From Escherichia phage vB_Eco_AL25, in the sequence record OW991345: a DNA stretch of 64,000 nt. One strand, given 5' to 3'. A program made the translations under genes and the position numbers. Position 1 is the stretch's first letter. Each line of letters begins with the position of its first letter. Below the pieces are notes generated by a model. It was given only the letters and a program-made list of their open reading frames with translations. It made no database searches and was not told the origin of the DNA. Positions 21,227-41,106 of the stretch are shown piece after piece.

Positions 21227-22444
21227 TTATAGGCCGTTCAGCCGAGGTAGTTTCATAAAGTCCTCGTCACTCATTGCAAGAGGATTAACAAGGACTTCTG
21301 TCTTACGCGGTGTAACCCGTGATGGGGATGCCGCTGCTGCCTGTTGAGTATTAGTGATTTCAGACTTAGGTGTTGCAACACGAGTTGCTACTGGCTGAAC
21401 CACTGGCTTAGGTTGTTCAACAGGTTTCTGCTTAATCAAATCATTAAAACCACCATTAGCAGCAAGGTAGTTACCGACTTGATTATAAGCATCCAGGAAT
21501 GCTGTACCGATTGGGATTTGGCCTAAGATTTTGAGTCGTTCAATTTCAGAAACAATACGGTCGTAAATACCGTTAGCTTTCTGTTCAACGATGGTATTAA
21601 CCAGACCACGATTTTCCAGCAATGCCTGTTTGCTGTGGTCATCCCACGTAGTCGAAATTAACTGAAGAGTAGCTTGTCCTTCTGGAGTGGATTTAGCATC
21701 TTCCAGTTCGGTTGCAAATGCTGCTTCAGCATCTGACACACGGTGATTACCAGCTTGGTATTTAACTTCCTCTTCTGGATTAATATCCAGAACATCAATA
21801 CCAGATTCTTTAATCAACTTCTTAATAGCATCAGGATTCCCTTTAACTAAGTCGATAGCATAAGAGAGTTGCCCTTCATCTAATAATCCGTTGTTTTCTA
21901 ACATCAGGAGATACTTACGATACGGCTGAATCTCCTGCATTTTACGGGTATAGTTAGCTCCCATTTGCATCAGGCTAATGACCTCTTCAGGACTCTGAGG
22001 AGTAATCATTTTGCCGTTAGCTTTAAACGGAGCCATTATCCGTTCATAACCAGCCTTATAGTCGAAGTCAGTTTTCTGGTCTGATACCTGCTTGTCTTCT
22101 TCTACTTTTGCTTGGCCTTGCTCAGTAGTAGAAGGTGCATTATCAGTAGCAGGCTTACTGTTGCTGTCAACCTTATTTGGGTCAACTGTAGCACTATCAT
22201 TACCAGTTGTGAATGCATCTGAATTGCTTTCTGATTCAGAAGTATTTTCTACTTCAGTTGGTTCAGTAGTTACTTCTGGTTCATCAGTTTGTTCAACTTC
22301 AACAATTGGGTCTGGTTGTGCAGGAGTATTATTTTCTACCGGTTCCGGGTTGTTCTGAATGCTTGATGGACCAGGCATGTTCAGAATCTCTTCATCCGAC
22401 ATTTTAAAAATGTCGGAAGCTGTTTTTGCAGCTTCCGTAGTCAT
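21227..22444 (-). CDS. putative scaffolding protein (acidic, 405 aa)
   Basis: Highly acidic low-complexity N-terminal half; position between portal and capsid genes. Confidence 0.4.
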   Translation of the reverse strand: MTTEAAKTASDIFKMSDEEILNMPGPSSIQNNPEPVENNTPAQPDPIVEVEQTDEPEVTTEPTEVENTSESESNSDAFTTGNDSATVDPNKVDSNSKPATDNAPSTTEQGQAKVEEDKQVSDQKTDFDYKAGYERIMAPFKANGKMITPQSPEEVISLMQMGANYTRKMQEIQPYRKYLLMLENNGLLDEGQLSYAIDLVKGNPDAIKKLIKESGIDVLDINPEEEVKYQAGNHRVSDAEAAFATELEDAKSTPEGQATLQLISTTWDDHSKQALLENRGLVNTIVEQKANGIYDRIVSEIERLKILGQIPIGTAFLDAYNQVGNYLAANGGFNDLIKQKPVEQPKPVVQPVATRVATPKSEITNTQQAAAASPSRVTPRKTEVLVNPLAMSDEDFMKLPRLNGL

Positions 22445-22469
22445 GGGAGTATCTCCGAGTTAGGATTAA

Positions 22470-22817
22470 TTAAACTTCTTCAGGTTCACCACGAGCAACA
22501 TCCAATGCATTCTCAATATCTGATTGGACACCTACCAGTGTTTCTGCTTTCTGAAGAGTAATTTCCAGGTAACGTTTTAAACAACCAGCAGCTTGAGCCA
22601 TAGCAAGAGCATCAGCACGTTGACGGTCTTCAAGCAATGGGTCACAGGATTCTTGTACGTAACGAGCACAGTCTACAGTACAGAATTGCTCAAGAATTAC
22701 TTTACGGAAAAGGGAATTACCCATCAGCTTACGAACATCTTCTGCATAAGCACGAGCAGCTTTAATACCCTTCAGTTGATGTTCCAGTCCTTCAATTTCT
22801 TTTTCTTTGCTGTACAT
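22470..22817 (-). CDS. hypothetical head-morphogenesis protein, 115 aa
   Basis: ORF between portal and scaffold genes. Confidence 0.45.
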   Translation of the reverse strand: MYSKEKEIEGLEHQLKGIKAARAYAEDVRKLMGNSLFRKVILEQFCTVDCARYVQESCDPLLEDRQRADALAMAQAAGCLKRYLEITLQKAETLVGVQSDIENALDVARGEPEEV

Positions 22818-28186: not shown

Positions 28187-34760
<6,574 letters not shown>

Positions 34761-36395
34761 TCACACGATATATGAAGAGAGTGGGTTAACACTTCCAGTA
34801 TCATCACCATCATCCCACAATGGGTCACCTGATGTATTAACTGGAACCATACCTGCTTGTGGTTTCCACGGGTTCAGGTAGCCAAGCATTGAAATGGTAT
34901 CAATACAGTCATCCTTACCTTTAAGACCATTGATAGTGGCTAAACGAATTTGCCCCATAAAGAGTGTCATGATTGGGCTATCTTTCATCTCAGCAGGAAA
35001 ATACATCTTACCAGCTTTGAACCAGGGAACCACGAGGTTAAACCTTGATAGCTTACTGGTTACAGGATGAATACCCGGTTGGCCTCCACGACTGGATGCA
35101 AAGTTAAAGAACACATTACGGTTAAGCATTTCCTTCTGAAGAAGAGAAATAAAACCACCTTGCTGTCCAGTAGTTTCTACACCAACTTGTTGTGGTTGAT
35201 ATTCCTGAACCAGACGGAATAAGTCATCAAAGTTCTTATCCATAGTTTGACGGCAAGCAATACCATCTACCCAGAACCAGTCACCGTTAGAACCATATGC
35301 CCATACTGATATTACAGAGTAGTCAGATACCTGCTTCTCGCTGGTAGCAAAGTCAGTGGTGATATAGAAGTTATAACAAGAACGGAGACGTAATAGCTGC
35401 GTACGGGAATACCATTTAATCTCTGAATCTTGAATCAGCCGTTCATCTTCAGAACTGATACGTAACATCAGTTCCTGATAAAAGGATGCCAGCTTACCAG
35501 TCTTCAATGCCATCTGGTATTGGTCATTGATGTAGTCATAGGAGAAACGGTCTTCCCAAGCACCTTGAAATTCTTCTCGCGTACATGGGAATTTCTCACA
35601 TACAGGCCATACGTTGACATCCCAAGCACCAGATTCAACTGCTTCAATAAGAATATCTTCCTTATTAAAGGGAGTACCATTAAAGATTACCTTACGTCTT
35701 GTTGGGTCAAGAGCATGGTTCACACCCTTATATACCGTGTCTTTAATGGCTTCCATTGATGTACGTGAGCGAGCATCATCATCACTAACTAAGTCATCCA
35801 GTACACAAAGAACAGGACGTTTACCAAAAATCTTAGTACCACGAAGACCTGTCTTAGCACCAAACATCTTCACACCAAGACGGTGACCTTCAGCATTTAC
35901 AAACTCAAGGTAGTTATCTGTGAAGGTAGCTTTAGGAATCCATTGTTGCAGGAATGGTGAATTGTTGTATCGAAACTCAATGTTCTTACGGGCAGACTTA
36001 ACACCGTTATCCATAGAGTCAGATACATAAATCATTCCCTCTACTTTACCCAAGCTAGGTAGATGCCCAAACACCGCTAAGAACAGAGTAAAGTATTCCA
36101 TGAACAAAGTTGTCTTTGCTGCACCACGGAAACATAAGTTAGCAATGTACTGATTCTTACTGGTTATCTTATCCAGCATCTTTAAGTGAACAGGAGGGGT
36201 TTTGTTTGATTCCCCCTCCTTACCATTAACCAGCTTAATAAAGTTAGCAAAGGTCAGTGCAAACTCAGTTGGTATATACGTAGGGGTATTCAGAACGGAA
36301 TAGTCCACTTGGTCTAGCCATTCATCCAACTCCTGTTTAATTAGTTCAGACATCAATAATATCCTCGTCTTCTCGAACCAGTGTGGAACCTGCAA
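34761..36395 (-). CDS. terminase large subunit, 544 aa
   Basis: Walker A-like RGAAKTT and Walker B-like VLCVLDDLVSDDD; size and position. Confidence 0.8.
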   Translation of the reverse strand: MQVPHWFEKTRILLMSELIKQELDEWLDQVDYSVLNTPTYIPTEFALTFANFIKLVNGKEGESNKTPPVHLKMLDKITSKNQYIANLCFRGAAKTTLFMEYFTLFLAVFGHLPSLGKVEGMIYVSDSMDNGVKSARKNIEFRYNNSPFLQQWIPKATFTDNYLEFVNAEGHRLGVKMFGAKTGLRGTKIFGKRPVLCVLDDLVSDDDARSRTSMEAIKDTVYKGVNHALDPTRRKVIFNGTPFNKEDILIEAVESGAWDVNVWPVCEKFPCTREEFQGAWEDRFSYDYINDQYQMALKTGKLASFYQELMLRISSEDERLIQDSEIKWYSRTQLLRLRSCYNFYITTDFATSEKQVSDYSVISVWAYGSNGDWFWVDGIACRQTMDKNFDDLFRLVQEYQPQQVGVETTGQQGGFISLLQKEMLNRNVFFNFASSRGGQPGIHPVTSKLSRFNLVVPWFKAGKMYFPAEMKDSPIMTLFMGQIRLATINGLKGKDDCIDTISMLGYLNPWKPQAGMVPVNTSGDPLWDDGDDTGSVNPLSSYIV

Positions 36396-37038
36396 TTACT
36401 TTAGTAGGTGTACCGGCTTCAATAGCTGCTTTCTGAGCCTCAGCCAACTGGGTTAGTGTGTTCTTGAGTTCAGTCAATCCAGAGTTTTCTCTCAAATCCA
36501 GATTGATATTAGTAACAGCATCCTTCGGTTTCTGGAGGTGAGTAAGGATAGAGTTGGCAGCATCACACTGTACCTTCTCACTGGTAGCATTCTTCATGAG
36601 CCATGCCTGATGGTTCAATGCTTCCTGAAACAAATCCTGATTAACAATCCATACTGGAATCAGTGATTGTTCCATAATGAGGTTTACTAACTTACCTCTA
36701 TGGTAAGCAGATACATAAGCAGAGATGTCCTTCTCACTGGTTCCCCTTGCTACTAATTCAGCTTGTCTGTTGGGGAATGTTTTGAAGTAAGCATCTTTGT
36801 TGCTATACCCCATGTGTTTGTAAGTAACATATTGAACAGCATTAAGGTAATCCTGGGTCTTAAACTTCCCATCCTTCATCACCCCAGCATAAGTCACAAA
36901 GTTATTTCTAATTTGCTCTGCTGCTGTCTGGTCTTGGGTCACATTGTTAATCATGTTTACCAGTTGGTCAGTAACACTGCTTTTAAACTGGGGAGGCAAT
37001 GCAGAAACAATGTCTTTCTTCGTCAGTAGTGTGCTCAT
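36346..37038 (-). CDS. putative terminase small subunit / first late gene, 230 aa
   Basis: Directly upstream of and overlapping terminase large subunit by 50 nt; RBS AGGAAG. Confidence 0.4.
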   Translation of the reverse strand: MSTLLTKKDIVSALPPQFKSSVTDQLVNMINNVTQDQTAAEQIRNNFVTYAGVMKDGKFKTQDYLNAVQYVTYKHMGYSNKDAYFKTFPNRQAELVARGTSEKDISAYVSAYHRGKLVNLIMEQSLIPVWIVNQDLFQEALNHQAWLMKNATSEKVQCDAANSILTHLQKPKDAVTNINLDLRENSGLTELKNTLTQLAEAQKAAIEAGTPTKVIAGSTLVREDEDIIDV

Positions 37039-37165
37039 AGTCTTCCTACAAATTATCTAGAGTGAAGAGGATTCTTTTCTTGGGGTTAGCACCCCTTGCA
37101 GAAACCTATACATAGATTTAGACTTTAGACTTTCTTTAGTCTCCTTACAATAGTAAGACAGAGAC

Positions 37166-37507
37166 ATGGGGAGCCTATTGCCCAAAGGAACCAGTAACAT
37201 GAGACTATTCTATAGTTTTGACGGTAATGACCAATGGAATGAGATAGACTTCAGTAAAATAGGTGGAGCTATCCCAGTTGGAGGGGCTATGCCAGGTGAC
37301 CATATCTTATGTCACGATGAGGAGTCTTTCCATTACATCTCAGGTATGATGTTAATCAATAACGTCACTGGGTTTACTGTCCATAAACCTGCACCAGTAC
37401 GTGTCATTACCAAGCCTATCGAGGGTCTTGCATTCTTTACAAGAATACCTCAAAGTATCTCTATCAAACGACAGCGTGACGCCATCGAGATGACCGTGGT
37501 TGCTTGA
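37166..37507 (+). CDS. hypothetical protein in the divergent junction, 113 aa
   Basis: ORF with plausible codon usage; weak RBS; overlapping minus-strand ORFs look spurious. Confidence 0.3.
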   Translation: MGSLLPKGTSNMRLFYSFDGNDQWNEIDFSKIGGAIPVGGAMPGDHILCHDEESFHYISGMMLINNVTGFTVHKPAPVRVITKPIEGLAFFTRIPQSISIKRQRDAIEMTVVA

Positions 37508-37670
37508 TAAGCCATTGCCCGCCCAGGAGTTGGTGGCGGGAAACAGGGAACTGTTTGAATAACCACTCCAGCTACATTCACCCATCTCCAAGACACCTTT
37601 GTTATCTGCCATTGGGTGATGAGTAGTATCAGAGAGAACTGATTTAACAAACACACTCGGTATAGGAATT

Positions 37671-37699
37671 GGGAGCCAAATGGCTCCCTTTTTCTTTTA
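37671..37699 (+). terminator. rho-independent terminator just upstream of the first early gene
   Basis: GGGAGCC-AAAT-GGCTCCC followed by TTTTTCTTTT. Confidence 0.6.
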
Positions 37700-37717
37700 T
37701 GAACCAAGGAGTTCTAT

Positions 37718-38083
37718 ATGAACATTCGTCCTAATGAAGTCTATGGTATCAACCTAGAATACACTACAAACAAACCTGCTCTATTTCACTGTGGTTCCAC
37801 CAACCTATTCCATGCTATGTGTGGTAATACCAAACCTCTTTACTTACCCGAATCAGATGATACCCATGCCCTGCTAGGTAACTGGTTTTTAGAAGGTAAA
37901 GACATTAGTACCATTCTCCTTGAACCAAGGAAGAAAGTAGCAATACCTACTAATGCATGGAATAACGAAGTCATTTACTTCCTCGCACCTGAAGGCTTTG
38001 AACCAGTGATAGAACAGAATCACTTTAATCATGCAGTTACTTTCTACTTCAGAGAGACTTCAAAGTTATCTGCTTATAAATAA
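37718..38083 (+). CDS. early hypothetical protein, 121 aa
   Basis: RBS AAGGAG 7 nt upstream. Confidence 0.6.
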   Translation: MNIRPNEVYGINLEYTTNKPALFHCGSTNLFHAMCGNTKPLYLPESDDTHALLGNWFLEGKDISTILLEPRKKVAIPTNAWNNEVIYFLAPEGFEPVIEQNHFNHAVTFYFRETSKLSAYK

Positions 38084-38091
38084 GGAAAGCT

Positions 38092-38220
38092 ATGTGGTAT
38101 ATAACAGTTAAAGGTTTACCCGAACCAGTGATGATAGATAGCCTAGCCTTCGTAGAAGTAGGTCATCCTATTCTTATAGAAGGTAAGTTGTATGAAGTTG
38201 TTAGTATTTATAAGAGATAA
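38092..38220 (+). CDS. small early protein, 42 aa
   Basis: RBS AGGAAA directly upstream; below ORF-track cutoff. Confidence 0.3.
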   Translation: MWYITVKGLPEPVMIDSLAFVEVGHPILIEGKLYEVVSIYKR

Positions 38221-38379
38221 ATAGGAAGTCTATTAGATAGATACCCTATAATTTTTTCTTAGTGAAAATAGTCATAGTTACTTATGAGTTCAGTATTTGG
38301 TGGGGCTACACCCCTTACACCATAAGCACCCCCCCCCCTGTCTTTACTAGTGTAGCCTTAGCCTACCCCACCTTGTACA

Positions 38380-38412
38380 CGTTACACGTTGCTTCGCAAC
38401 TTATGGACATGT
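38380..38412 (+). promoter_or_regulatory. N4 vRNAP-type hairpin promoter (5-bp stem, 3-nt loop; template loop GAA)
   Basis: GTTGC-TTC-GCAAC followed by TTATGGAC; same architecture as the other two hairpins. Confidence 0.6.
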
Positions 38413-38451
38413 TGTCCGTATCTTATCAATCAACTATTGGAGACTAATACT

Positions 38452-38778
38452 ATGACTACTCAGGCTAACGTTCGTATGACTGTAGGAACTCTGTTGGGTA
38501 CTGTTAACGAAGCAGCAACTACTGTAGCTGATACATTCGGTACTGCTACTAAAGCAGTAGGTATGCTTAATCGTTATGTAACTAAACAAGCAGATAAACA
38601 AATCATTCGTGACAAATTAGAAATGCATGAGTTTACCAATAAACTTATTGAAGAAACTGCAATGCAAGAAGCTATTCGTCAGAAACAAATCTTAGACTTC
38701 TGCAAAGATGAACAAAACAAAGAATTGTTCTCTAATGCCTATGACCGTCTTAGCAAAATCTTAGCAGACTCTAAATAA
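38452..38778 (+). CDS. early hypothetical protein, 108 aa
   Basis: RBS GGAGA; internal ATG chosen because the longer ORF begins inside the promoter hairpin. Confidence 0.55.
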   Translation: MTTQANVRMTVGTLLGTVNEAATTVADTFGTATKAVGMLNRYVTKQADKQIIRDKLEMHEFTNKLIEETAMQEAIRQKQILDFCKDEQNKELFSNAYDRLSKILADSK

Positions 38779-38849
38779 CAACAAACAAATGGAGGCTCCT
38801 CGGAGTCTCCTTTTACATAGAACCGATAGTTCAATAACTATCTACTTTA

Positions 38850-38880
38850 AAGATAAGAAGCTCCGCTTCTTTTGGATGAA
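38850..38880 (+). promoter_or_regulatory. N4 vRNAP-type hairpin promoter, P2-like (7-bp stem, 3-nt loop; template reads AAGAAGCGGAGCTTCTT)
   Basis: AAGAAGC-TCC-GCTTCTT followed by TTGGATG; the reverse complement matches the N4 P2 core as I recall it. Confidence 0.7.
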
Positions 38881-38991
38881 GTAATGCATCCAATCCTGTA
38901 TGAAATCTTAACCTTTTGTCTGGGATTACTTACCGACAAAGTAGTCTCAACTAATCAAAATCAACTATCTGGAGAGTACAAAATGGCTATC

Positions 38992-39369
38992 ACTACTTTT
39001 GCTAAAACCTTTGGTCAGGCTTCTACTAAAACCGAATCCAACAATGGTTCTCGTCCGAAAGCTCAGTTCTGGATTAACGTTGGCTATGTAGCTAATGAAG
39101 GCACTGAAGATGAACGTTTCATCTCTCTGCCTACTGGTATTCCACTGGATACTCAGGAGCATCTGCCAACCAATTCCTCTAACGAAGACTTCCGTGCAAT
39201 GCGTTGTGCACAGAACGATTTGTTAGACCAACTGATGGAATTTGCTAAGACTCTGGAACCAGGTCAGGAAGGAGTTATCTCACTGCAAGTTCAACTTCGT
39301 CGAGTTAAAGAAGAAGCTCCTGCTATCTCAGCAAGTGAGAATAAATATGCTCGTAAACTGACTTTTTAA
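38992..39369 (+). CDS. early hypothetical protein, 125 aa
   Basis: RBS GGAGAG 6 nt upstream of ATG; the TTG start at 38872 in the ORF track lies inside the promoter. Confidence 0.55.
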
Positions 39370-39377
39370 TCTCTATA

Positions 39378-39405
39378 GGACTACCTTCGGGTAGTCCTTT
39401 TTAAT
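39378..39405 (+). terminator. rho-independent terminator
   Basis: GGACTACC-TTCG-GGTAGTCC followed by TTTTT. Confidence 0.65.
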
Positions 39406-39511
39406 TTTAACTATCTAAATACTAAAGTAGAGATTTTGACCCTTTTCGACGAAGGGATACTAAAAAGTAATGGATAGTTTGAGCAGATGTTTTAGAAGAA
39501 GGAGTATACAG

Positions 39512-39826
39512 ATGCATCCTCTTATAAAACGATTCCTGATGGACTATCAGGAGTGGTTAGATAATGGAGCCAGTGAACCTCATTACCTGTTTGATAGGGG
39601 TAGTGGACTGTGTGTTCAACTAGGCAAATATCTTAGAAGACAGCCAATCAGTGAAGAAACAGTAGATACTCTGTGTAAGAGCTTTACTCATTTACTTCCT
39701 GATAATGATACCAATCTACCATTCAATGTAGATGTTCTCGACTACATGATGGAATGTTCTGATGGAAGATGTCATCTGAACCAAAGTCGAATTAATTGGA
39801 TAAAGAGTCAGTTGGAGAGTAAGTAA
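39512..39826 (+). CDS. early hypothetical protein, 104 aa
   Basis: RBS GAAGGAG before internal ATG. Confidence 0.5.
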   Translation: MHPLIKRFLMDYQEWLDNGASEPHYLFDRGSGLCVQLGKYLRRQPISEETVDTLCKSFTHLLPDNDTNLPFNVDVLDYMMECSDGRCHLNQSRINWIKSQLESK

Positions 39827-39829
39827 ATT

Positions 39830-40267
39830 ATGTCATATGAAATTGTAAAACATTGGACTTCTAAGGCTGGGCTGAAGGCTTGGGTATTGCTGGTAAATGG
39901 TGGTAGTCATCATTGCGGTTACGTAGAAATACCTGAAGCATTACTGGATAAAAACTTCTATGACTATATCTGTGATGATGAAGAAACACTTCATATTGCA
40001 GTACATGGTGGAGTTACCTATCAAGGTGTTCCTCAGTGGGCTGATGGGATTAAAGTCATAGGTTATGACTGTGCTCATGCAGGGGATAAACTGAAATGTC
40101 CTAAACAATTCATTGGCTCTCTTAGGGAGAGACTCTATGAGGATTCTTATGGAGTATGGCGAGATGAAGAATACTGCATCAATGAATGTGAAAGCATGGC
40201 AGACCAGTTAATTAACCTGATACCAAAATTAGGGTTTAACGATGAAATTCAGAACAGTAATGGTTAA
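39830..40267 (+). CDS. early hypothetical protein with His/Cys-rich blocks, 145 aa
   Basis: GGSHHCGYVEIP, HGGVTY, GYDCAHAGD blocks; product unknown. Confidence 0.55.
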   Translation: MSYEIVKHWTSKAGLKAWVLLVNGGSHHCGYVEIPEALLDKNFYDYICDDEETLHIAVHGGVTYQGVPQWADGIKVIGYDCAHAGDKLKCPKQFIGSLRERLYEDSYGVWRDEEYCINECESMADQLINLIPKLGFNDEIQNSNG

Positions 40268-40439
40268 TGCTCTTGATACCAGGGGTAATGAAATCATTAG
40301 CTATAAAGTGCAAGGCTTTAAATGGTTCAAATGGAAAACATTAACTAGCTTTAAAGAATTTGAGAAAGATAAAGCTATTAAGTTAACCAAGAAATTGAAC
40401 CAACGTAAGAAGATTAAATTAGTTACTGTAATTAAATAA
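40242..40439 (+). CDS. early hypothetical basic protein, 65 aa
   Basis: ORF overlapping previous gene end. Confidence 0.4.
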   Translation: MKFRTVMVNALDTRGNEIISYKVQGFKWFKWKTLTSFKEFEKDKAIKLTKKLNQRKKIKLVTVIK

Positions 40440-40449
40440 GGATAAGGCA

Positions 40450-40608
40450 ATGCGTAAATCACTAATCATGGGAACCAAAGAAGACGTTGCTAAGATGAAA
40501 GCTAAACGTCAGATGAATAAAGCAGTAACGTTTGCAGAACGTTATAGTACGTCTGAACCAGTACGTCGTATTGTTACTTTCAACCATCCAGCTATTAAGG
40601 GTATGTAA
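40450..40608 (+). CDS. small early protein, 52 aa
   Basis: RBS AAGGATAAGG; stop overlaps next start (TAATG). Confidence 0.4.
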   Translation: MRKSLIMGTKEDVAKMKAKRQMNKAVTFAERYSTSEPVRRIVTFNHPAIKGM

Positions 40609-40817
40609 TGCAAACTAAAGATAAGAAAGACTTAGAACGTCTTCTCCGTGTATATGGTGATTATGCATTGTTAGCAGAGATAACTAATATTATCGAAGAA
40701 GACTGTCGTAACGGTTATGCCAATAACCCACAAGCAATAATTCATCGTGATGCAGTAGTGCTTAGAGAAGCAGTCAGTAAGATGCAAGCATTACATCCAT
40801 TAAGACAGCGAGCATAA
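40608..40817 (+). CDS. early hypothetical protein, 69 aa
   Basis: Translationally coupled to upstream ORF. Confidence 0.5.
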   Translation: MQTKDKKDLERLLRVYGDYALLAEITNIIEEDCRNGYANNPQAIIHRDAVVLREAVSKMQALHPLRQRA

Positions 40818-40890
40818 ATAGGAGGGGGCTACTAAGCCCTCTTCTTATTTTTATCGTGGTTATTAAGCAACTATCTTAGAGGAAGGAATA

Positions 40891-41106
40891 ATGGAACAGT
40901 TAAACTACGGTTATAAGATTAAACGCAATCAAGTAAGAGGTTCTTGGTTATTTCTCGTTTATGGTAAACCAATCTATGAATTACATCGTGGAGAGAAATC
41001 CAAGACCTATTACGTAACTCATATTGCTACAGGAAAAACTCCTGCATGTGCAGGATTGCTTCGTGATGCAATTATGAAAGCATGTATGTTAGAAGGACTT
41101 CTATGA
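40891..41106 (+). CDS. early hypothetical protein, 71 aa
   Basis: RBS GGAAGGAATA upstream. Confidence 0.5.
   Translation: MEQLNYGYKIKRNQVRGSWLFLVYGKPIYELHRGEKSKTYYVTHIATGKTPACAGLLRDAIMKACMLEGLL

Follow-up and report, generated by a model that had tools for sequence, protein, structure and literature searches.

The subject of this study is positions 37039 to 37717 of a 64,000-nucleotide stretch of DNA from Escherichia phage vB_Eco_AL25 (sequence record OW991345), hereafter called the window. We find that this interval is best explained, with a probability of roughly 85%, as a divergent junction at which the leftward packaging and structural block meets a short rightward unit that lies at the right end of the phage N4 genome, with the physical genome ends located elsewhere, at 38298 and about 38709. 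Read from left to right, the interval holds some 160 bp of non-coding DNA, a conserved box included, the gene gp70, a structured RNA of about 190 nt, and an intrinsic terminator at 37671 to 37698. Literature searches retrieved no earlier description of the N4 right-end unit or of its RNA, and, as far as could be found, the unit as a whole (box, 5' hairpin, gp70, pseudoknotted RNA, and terminator) is apparently undescribed.

A 2.5-kb query around the junction showed 98 to 99.9% identity to Escherichia phage N4 (EF056009) and to other Enquatrovirus records, and the window belongs to the same phage species as N4. Positions 66000 to 70153 of the EF056009 record correspond to positions 34144 to 38297 of the window at about 98% identity, and positions 1 to 4000 follow without a break at 38298 to 42298, again at about 98% identity. 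Duplicated ends are absent from the EF056009 record. Because this mapping is unbroken and the terminal-repeat sequence occurs in a single copy in the window (as does the 37039 to 37717 interval itself), the window represents a rotated or circularized assembly in which one collapsed copy of the terminal repeat remains, as an earlier, sequence-only reading of this DNA had proposed.

The same reading had placed the termini and the repeat within 37039 to 37717. We locate them outside this interval, since the end and the start of the N4 record meet at 38297/38298 and the repeat boundaries fall at 38298 and 38709 (plus strand, assigned by homology; left terminus at 38298, +/-3). The window sequence at 38298, TGGTGGGGCTACACCCC, aligns with the KP8 left end; that record carries one and the same 404-bp repeat at either end, beginning ATTGGTGGGGCTACACCCC. 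For IME11, read-start pile-ups have defined ends at GTGGCTGGGGCTACACCC and, 401 bp away, at ...TTCTGCAAAGATT (PMC3896407); these ends are homologous to positions 38298 to 38300 and 38709 of the window. Likewise, the 3' end of the KP8 repeat reads ...TTCTGCAAAGAT, the equivalent of which in the window is ...CTTCTGCAAAGAT, followed by G, at 38709, and the right repeat boundary of IME11 and KP8 is homologous to this position; in an N4-type repeat, this boundary is expected inside gp1, about 400 bp from the left end. Neither the left-end homologous sequence (...CAGTNNT followed by (N)GGTGGGGCTACACCC) nor the right boundary sequence occurs in 37039 to 37717; they were found at 38298 and at 38709, respectively. 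The repeat from 38298 to 38709 measures 412 bp, which is inside the literature range for N4 (390 to 440 bp, cited in PMC3670811), a range that gives a right boundary between 38687 and 38737. In other words, the window shares with the genome ends of N4 and N4-like phages the left-end sequence, both repeat boundaries, and the hairpin of early promoter P1 about 90 nt inside, but it has these features at 38298 to 38709, outside the interval in question, and its repeat is one collapsed copy. A run of ten C residues at 38329 to 38338, 31 nt inside the inferred left end, numbers nine in the N4 record and corresponds to a similar run of 7 C at the equivalent site of KP8, IME11, and Axy13. This run may be part of an end-recognition sequence or merely a length-variable tract.

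The arrangement of the repeat relative to the junction can be followed in other phages. In Axy13, Axy10, and phiAxp-3, annotated repeats of 404 to 416 bp begin 1.3 to 2.6 kb to the right of a gp69/gp70-type junction, with one to six small rightward genes between junction and repeat; run-off sequencing has defined the ends of phiAxp-3 (PMC4837373). For IME11 (mapped) and KP8 (duplicated), the repeat begins 2.5 to 2.7 kb to the right of the junction, past seven to ten small rightward genes. In all six N4-like phages examined, with annotated, duplicated, or mapped repeats, the divergent junction lies 1.3 to 2.7 kb to the left of the repeat. In the window, homology would put the left terminus about 0.6 kb to the right of the interval, and the far repeat boundary 1.0 to 1.7 kb to its right. 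The true end positions follow from N4 knowledge dating from the 1980s, and for this reason the part of the analysis that concerns the termini is ordinary and contains nothing new.

Several public records of the same species have been opened at arbitrary points. The SPSP record is opened inside gp2, and the AlfredRasser record (MZ501049) has both its first and its last base precisely at the gp69/gp70 junction (position 37039 of the window). The Bas96 record is opened about 10 bp away from the region homologous to this junction. AlfredRasser and Bas96 were rotated for convenience; their cut points do not mark physical ends and may be misleading. For annotation, rotated assemblies of N4-like phages are better not opened at the gp69/gp70 junction, though some database records are, and the true ends and the repeat can be transferred from N4, giving 38298 and about 38709 in this window.

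At the junction itself, the gene starts are divergent, as had been noted, with a leftward open reading frame (ORF) beginning at 37038 and a rightward ORF beginning at 37718. The former is gp69 (36346 to 37038, minus strand; 230 amino acids; phrog_2109), the first gene of the leftward packaging and structural block, in which TerL (gp68, phrog_38) and the structural genes come after it. The latter had been taken for the first early gene; it is N4 gp71 (37718 to 38083, plus strand), which together with gp72 (38092 to 38220, plus strand) is a right-end gene in the N4 record, and gp1 starts only at 38452. Nor is the interval a gene-free gap, since gp70 (37199 to 37507, plus strand), which encodes 102 amino acids (phrog_7213) and is annotated in N4, sits within it. 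The notion that late and early blocks abut at the genome ends omitted the gp70 to gp72 block of the N4 right end. gp70 is a real gene, and its homologues occupy the same position in six other genera at 26 to 40% amino acid identity. To its left, the non-coding divergent region between gp69 and gp70 (37039 to 37198, about 160 bp) is present once in the window. Small ORFs in this region (37057 to 37200 on the minus strand and one with an ATG at 37166) were rejected, being neither conserved nor free of frame-breaking indels. A search for tRNA and tmRNA genes in 37039 to 37717 found none; the four tRNA genes of the window (Asn-GTT, Ser-TGA, Thr-TGT, and Pro-TGG) all lie on the plus strand at 596 to 1274.

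The structured RNA occupies 37501 to 37698 on the plus strand and ends in the intrinsic terminator. It emerged from an alignment of the spacers of 200 to 290 nt, from the gp70 homologue to the next gene, of six genera, in which a conserved block showed evident compensatory changes. RNAalifold found two helices in these six sequences, with compensatory double changes at 7 of 12 pairs, and the six-sequence covariance model gave a single match in the window, at 37501 to 37589 (80.7 bits), which we refer to as the pseudoknot domain. The model also matched Axy13, which was outside the seed (E value, 2e-11), a new lineage, L150 (E value, 4e-8), and all Gamaleyavirus loci. Helices P1 (37518 to 37523 with 37535 to 37540) and P2 (37541 to 37545 with 37552 to 37556) were 96.5% paired, versus 40 to 62% when the partners were slid, and held 33 double-change cells, versus 7.9 in shuffled alignments, a value that was reached in none of 500 shuffles.

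The loop of P1 pairs with a segment 3' of a conserved AAUAAC linker. In N4 this pseudoknot helix is GGAGU/ACUCC (37526 to 37530 with 37565 to 37569 in the window), and it takes the form GUAGA/UCUAC in IME11, GGUAC/GUACC in Axy10, and GCGGA/UCCGC in Axy13. Although it stood outside the covariance model, it was 94.6% paired, with changes on both sides in four of its five pairs. The linker (GAAUAACC, 37557 to 37564) lies between P2 and the 3' strand of the pseudoknot, and a conserved CUCC is found 3' of the pseudoknot at 37586 to 37589. A second-round model produced weak matches in 19 more TerL-linked contigs, all 19 on the expected strand, and these carry a minimal form without P2. Over 29 distinct N4-like sequences, P1 was 95.9% and the pseudoknot helix 91.7% paired, versus 31 to 57% for slid partners. 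P1 contains 17 G.U pairs versus 2 A.C pairs when read on the plus strand; therefore, the rightward strand is the folding strand. Together, the two interleaved helices with their compensatory changes make up an H-type pseudoknot, with strong covariation, at the core of this RNA. A further 3' domain (37579 to 37643, plus strand), the alignment of which was judged by eye without a formal pair count, would contain P3 (CACCCA/UGGGUG, 37579 to 37584 with 37613 to 37618), which covaries and is followed by a conserved GUGAU, and the hairpin P4 (37628 to 37632 with 37639 to 37643).

None of the Rfam 15 covariance models matched at the motif, whether at E values of 1 or less across 36000 to 40000 or at 10 or less across 37480 to 37725, and at E values of 1 or less the same was true at the motif in 10 loci with its minimal form (see below). 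Weak Rfam matches to small nucleolar RNA and microRNA families were dismissed, as they merely reflected the terminator and a UGAUGA-like string. Elsewhere, a weak L20_leader match at 39302 to 39412 scored 26.6 bits, below the gathering score of 58.7; it spans the last part of gp2 together with the gp2 terminator and is almost certainly due to chance.

The strong terminator that the sequence-only reading had recognized before the ORF at 37718 is indeed present. It consists of the hairpin GGGAGCC-AAAT-GGCTCCC at 37671 to 37688, with a 7-bp stem that includes six G-C pairs, followed by the T-run TTTTTCTTTT up to 37698 (plus strand). Terminator-like sites number five in the region from 36500 to 39500, versus 1.7 expected from shuffles. 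A terminator is annotated at the same site in SPSP and JWAlpha, a 'terminator' feature lies under the match in SPSP and Jura, and in each N4-like lineage examined, a comparable terminator comes after the RNA motif. Inspection revealed no conserved alternative pairing between RNA and terminator; what pairing could be drawn was inconsistent between lineages, and a riboswitch-style alternative pairing with the terminator was rejected on this ground.

At the other end of the unit, the non-coding region (37039 to 37198) is conserved as DNA well beyond the species in distant blastn comparisons. The tandem AGACTTT motif that had been spotted near 37130 is real, with two copies at 37120 to 37133, and is contained in a conserved box, TTTAGACTTTAGACTTTCTTTAG (37117 to 37139, plus strand), that is shared by seven named genera and distant uncultured relatives. 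A 75-nt stretch that covers most of the box and extends beyond it (37118 to 37192, plus strand) shares 92% of its bases with its counterparts in Achromobacter phage Axy13 and Pseudomonas phage inbricus. No other DNA is as well conserved in a whole-genome comparison of the window with Axy13, a comparison in which long coding matches reach 63 to 75% and the TerL region about 70% DNA identity (79% for the TerL protein). Alignments of the seven genera show three conserved pieces in the non-coding region: the box, with an invariant TTAGACTTTAG and then CT-N3-4-TTTAG; a hairpin at 37139 to 37165; and a G-run followed by CCTATTG, just 5' of the gp70 ribosome-binding site. The hairpin, GTCTC-CTTAC-AATA-GTAAG-(ACA)-GAGAC (plus strand), shows covariation over six lineages, being 96.7% paired versus 20 to 52% with slid partners; three of its pairs have changes on both sides, and G.U pairs are possible only on the plus strand. 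A covariance model of box and hairpin matched once in the window and gave weaker matches in distant uncultured relatives, on the expected strand in 9 of 10 cases. These relatives keep the TAGACTTTAG...TTTAG box and, in most cases, CCTATTG, with the intervening sequence changed.

The box is a putative promoter of the rightward unit. It overlaps a plus-strand sigma-70-like match, TTTAGA-16-TACAAT, at 37124 to 37151 (9 of 12 positions), and rightward transcription would start near 37139 to 37141, at the foot of the hairpin, which would then form the 5' stem-loop of the rightward transcript. We infer this start, as well as the expression of the RNA, from sequence. The layout is reminiscent of promoters for T7-type phage polymerases, in that a box of about 22 nt ending in ...CTTTAG stands directly 5' of a conserved hairpin; T7 promoters read ...CACTATAG and are followed by a 5' stem-loop on the transcript. 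Unlike those promoters, the box is single copy in this genome, and with one occurrence in 64 kb it was rejected as a multi-copy promoter. A second hairpin, GGGGT-TAGC-ACCCC at 37082 to 37095, lies in a block from about 37046 to 37128 that is about 80% conserved in Gamaleyavirus and can be aligned with Kaypoctavirus. Probably, this hairpin belongs to the leftward gp69 operon, as part of its promoter region or 5' leader.

Early promoters of the N4 type are located elsewhere. A scan for perfect 5- to 7-bp stems that enclose a 3-nt loop (non-template strand, TTC or TCC) and precede TTATGG or TTTTGG detected no virion RNA polymerase hairpin promoter in 37039 to 37717; the only sites in the window that fit are P1 (38388 to 38400; GTTGC-TTC-GCAAC, then TTATGG), located 91 nt inside the left end, P2 (38855 to 38871), and P3 (42844 to 42860), all on the plus strand. 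Both P1 and gp1 are situated in the terminal repeat or immediately beyond it. These positions agree with published data (PMC4496689), in which the early promoters of N4 are found at the left end alone and late transcription proceeds leftward. On the plus strand, a recurrent motif, AACTATCT(A/T)A with near variants, is found at about 38836, 39408, 40862, 45945, 47430, and 63098, in rightward intergenic regions and often directly 3' of terminators. It is a candidate promoter for N4 RNA polymerase II (middle transcription) and, in this respect, would be a better candidate than the box at 37117 to 37139.

The pseudoknot is not confined to N4-like phages. Viral contigs were searched with the pattern CCCCAG-N6-GTGGG-N1-6-ATAAC-N6-AG, and at least 114 of them contained the minimal motif, with N4-like proteins in only 22. 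As a rough control, a pattern shifted by one base (seven N instead of six) matched three times in viral contigs; in genome contigs, the shifted pattern gave 72 matches, no more than chance, and was uninformative. The consensus is ACCCCAG-N5-N-GGUGGGG-CUAAUAAC-N-N5'-AG, with CUCC about 15 nt further on. Of the 114 contigs, which together hold 42 distinct helices in 86 distinct sequences, 110 can form four or more of the five pseudoknot pairs, and 69 have CUCC 10 to 19 nt 3' of the motif. The motif typically appears as a 35-nt element between same-strand ORFs, with median distances of 85 nt to the ORF before it and 118 nt to the one after. TerL is detectable near the motif in 36 loci, according to PHROG assignments. 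In 18 of these, which are N4-like, TerL is divergent and starts 1 to 2.7 kb to the left of the motif; in the other 18, which are not, it is on the same strand and starts 0.3 to 2.4 kb downstream. Because the motif occurs in 114 contigs that are mostly not N4-like and in varied gene contexts, the pseudoknot core is best regarded as a predicted general phage RNA element, of which the N4-like version would be an elaboration with P2, P3, and a terminator. A megablast search with one non-N4 locus (L320) returned no matches, and a short blastn search of the minimal motif against cultured phages retrieved one weak variant only. In Pseudomonas phage VB_EV13 (PQ788408; L418, 2992 to 3154), a variant reads CCCC-AG-CGGGC-GGTGGG ... 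CCCGC-AG with a different A-rich linker (GAAGAAAACA). It begins 10 nt 3' of a stop codon, and the genes around it are of the early type and include an adjacent recombination (Bet) gene.

What might this RNA do? We put it at about an even chance that the pseudoknot with its CUCC acts in cis on the rightward transcript, where it may regulate the stability or processing of that transcript, read-through at the terminator (in N4-like phages), or the translation of a neighboring gene. A cis role is favored because the motif is usually found between same-strand genes and because the downstream CUCC resembles an anti-Shine-Dalgarno sequence.

A trans-acting RNA is less likely. Conceivably, box, RNA, and terminator could make up a stand-alone RNA gene in which gp70 is an optional passenger, and we regard this as the strongest competitor of a cis role, albeit an unlikely one. 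It would explain why the order in contig L172 is box, about 76 nt, structured RNA, and terminator, with no gp70 between box and RNA, why the RNA is detectable in lineages in which no gp70 homologue could be found (strict co-occurrence of gp70 and RNA was rejected for this reason), and why a terminator always follows the RNA in N4-like phages. In the wider family, however, the motif is just 35 nt long, is wedged between same-strand ORFs, and rarely has a strict terminator, which makes it look more like an element of an mRNA.

It is improbable, by comparison, that box and RNA serve genome-end biology, either because rightward transcription toward the concatemer junction, or the RNA itself, helps terminase to find or process the ends, as in right-end transcription of T7, or by priming or activating replication. 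The element is single copy, adjoins the terminase genes, and in N4-like phages lies 0.7 to 2.6 kb from the right end, and in the 18 non-N4 contigs it precedes TerL on the same strand by 0.3 to 2.4 kb; the region upstream of TerL is the usual site of cos or pac. Against this, the distance to the terminus varies about fourfold, more than two-thirds of the loci (all but 36 of 114) have no detectable TerL nearby, and the variant of VB_EV13 is found in the company of early-type genes, next to Bet. We know of no experiment that links the RNA to N4 packaging.

Slightly more improbable still is a new self-cleaving ribozyme that processes polycistronic phage transcripts. The compact pseudoknot with its invariant unpaired nucleotides (AG, GGU, AAUAAC, AG, and CUCC) would be in keeping with such an activity, as would its spread through phages without a fixed gene partner, which is typical of small ribozymes. 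However, no ribozyme family of Rfam 15, hammerhead, twister, pistol, hatchet, and HDV included, matches the motif, and a hammerhead-core-like GAUGAG does not hold up in N4 and IME11; new ribozyme classes are, to our knowledge, rare. Finally, the proposal that the physical termini and a collapsed repeat copy lie within 37039 to 37717 can be practically discounted, since the divergent junction, the AlfredRasser record end at 37039, and the single-copy, highly conserved non-coding DNA that speak for it are outweighed by the N4 record junction at 38297/38298 with terminus-like sequence and boundaries at 38298 and 38709, by the repeats of six relatives 1.3 to 2.7 kb to the right of the junction, by gp70 and the structured RNA, which take up most of the interval, and by the absence of an early-promoter hairpin from it.

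Returning to the putative cis element, its topology has well-known parallels. Like the preQ1-I riboswitch, the frameshift pseudoknots of luteoviruses, and the T4 gene 32 operator, it has an H-type fold with an A-rich third loop: stem 1 is short and C/G rich, the loop of stem 1 provides for a 5-bp stem 2, and the AAUAAC linker would cross stem 1. It differs from them in having no sequence or covariance-model match to preQ1 or other Rfam families and no conserved upstream slippery sequence, and only this motif has the CUCC 10 to 19 nt downstream and the hairpin P2 as an optional insertion. In N4-like phages, the succession of structured RNA, intrinsic terminator, and same-strand genes is also reminiscent of the cis-acting leader RNAs that precede terminators (lambda 6S/qut, HK022 put, and Bacillus EAR), and in some other phages the motif is located upstream of the terminase and structural operon. 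In contrast to these systems, there is no sequence similarity and no conserved alternative pairing of the terminator, and the terminator is not general in the wider family.

Several observations weigh against parts of the reading that we prefer, namely, a divergent junction with a rightward right-end unit and genome ends elsewhere. The termini have been placed by homology alone, with an accuracy of a few bases, and the first base of the N4 record could in principle be a convention; three independent lines (the duplicated ends of KP8, the read pile-ups of IME11, and the repeats of the Achromobacter phages) agree on the homologous site. As to the promoter, the final T of the sigma-70-like -10 element is lost in Axy13 (TACAAC), and a weaker leftward sigma-70-like arrangement (TTGTAA-17-TAAAGT, 8 of 12 positions) overlaps the box. 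Because of this overlap, part of the conservation of the box may serve a late promoter or leader of the leftward gp69. As to the RNA, no conserved neighboring gene family was found around the 114 loci, and in the wider family a strict intrinsic terminator lies 3' of the motif in only 5 of 114 loci. Given this rarity and the lack of conservation of the flanking genes, the link with a terminator may be specific to N4-like phages. With regard to novelty, PMC10690425 lists 8,495 viral candidates, and the motif may already be one of them, without a name.

Some relatives show additional features around the RNA. In L146, L147, L148, and L190, a hairpin occurs just 5' of the RNA motif (in L146 to L148, between the gp70 stop codon and the RNA). 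The hairpin of L190, about 100 nt upstream of the motif at 2679 to 2745 (minus strand), reads GGTTGC-TCC-GCAAC, which is the stem of an early promoter annotated in KP8, and JWAlpha has GAGAGA-CTT-TCTCTC and then GCTGATGG upstream of its RNA. Possibly, the RNA has its own hairpin-type promoter at this place. On the 3' side, a tRNA gene, seen by eye, directly follows the RNA motif and terminator of L217 (downstream of 1089 to 1154, minus strand), and a cluster of six or seven tRNA genes directly follows the RNA motif of L309 (612 to 1165). Elsewhere in the window, the stretch at 22376 to 22457 ranks second in conservation with Axy13 among matches longer than about 40 nt (84.7% over 85 nt). It contains a perfect 10-bp hairpin, TCCGACATTT-TAA-AAATGTCGGA, at 22395 to 22417, which is adjoined by a chance-level match to the RNA model at 22417 to 22502 (E value, 0.76).

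In summary, the content of the interval is of more interest than the claim about the termini, and the RNA motif is the interesting part. Tentatively, and with somewhat less confidence than in a cis role, the pseudoknot-CUCC element (37501 to 37589) may represent an undescribed and widespread class of phage RNA, perhaps with a specific molecular activity. If so, it could target RNA polymerase or the ribosome as a regulator, serve in processing or as a ribozyme, or have a role linked to the region of the packaging genes and genome ends. Since the motif is present in the genetically tractable phage N4, the function of a widespread phage RNA would be open to direct testing there.

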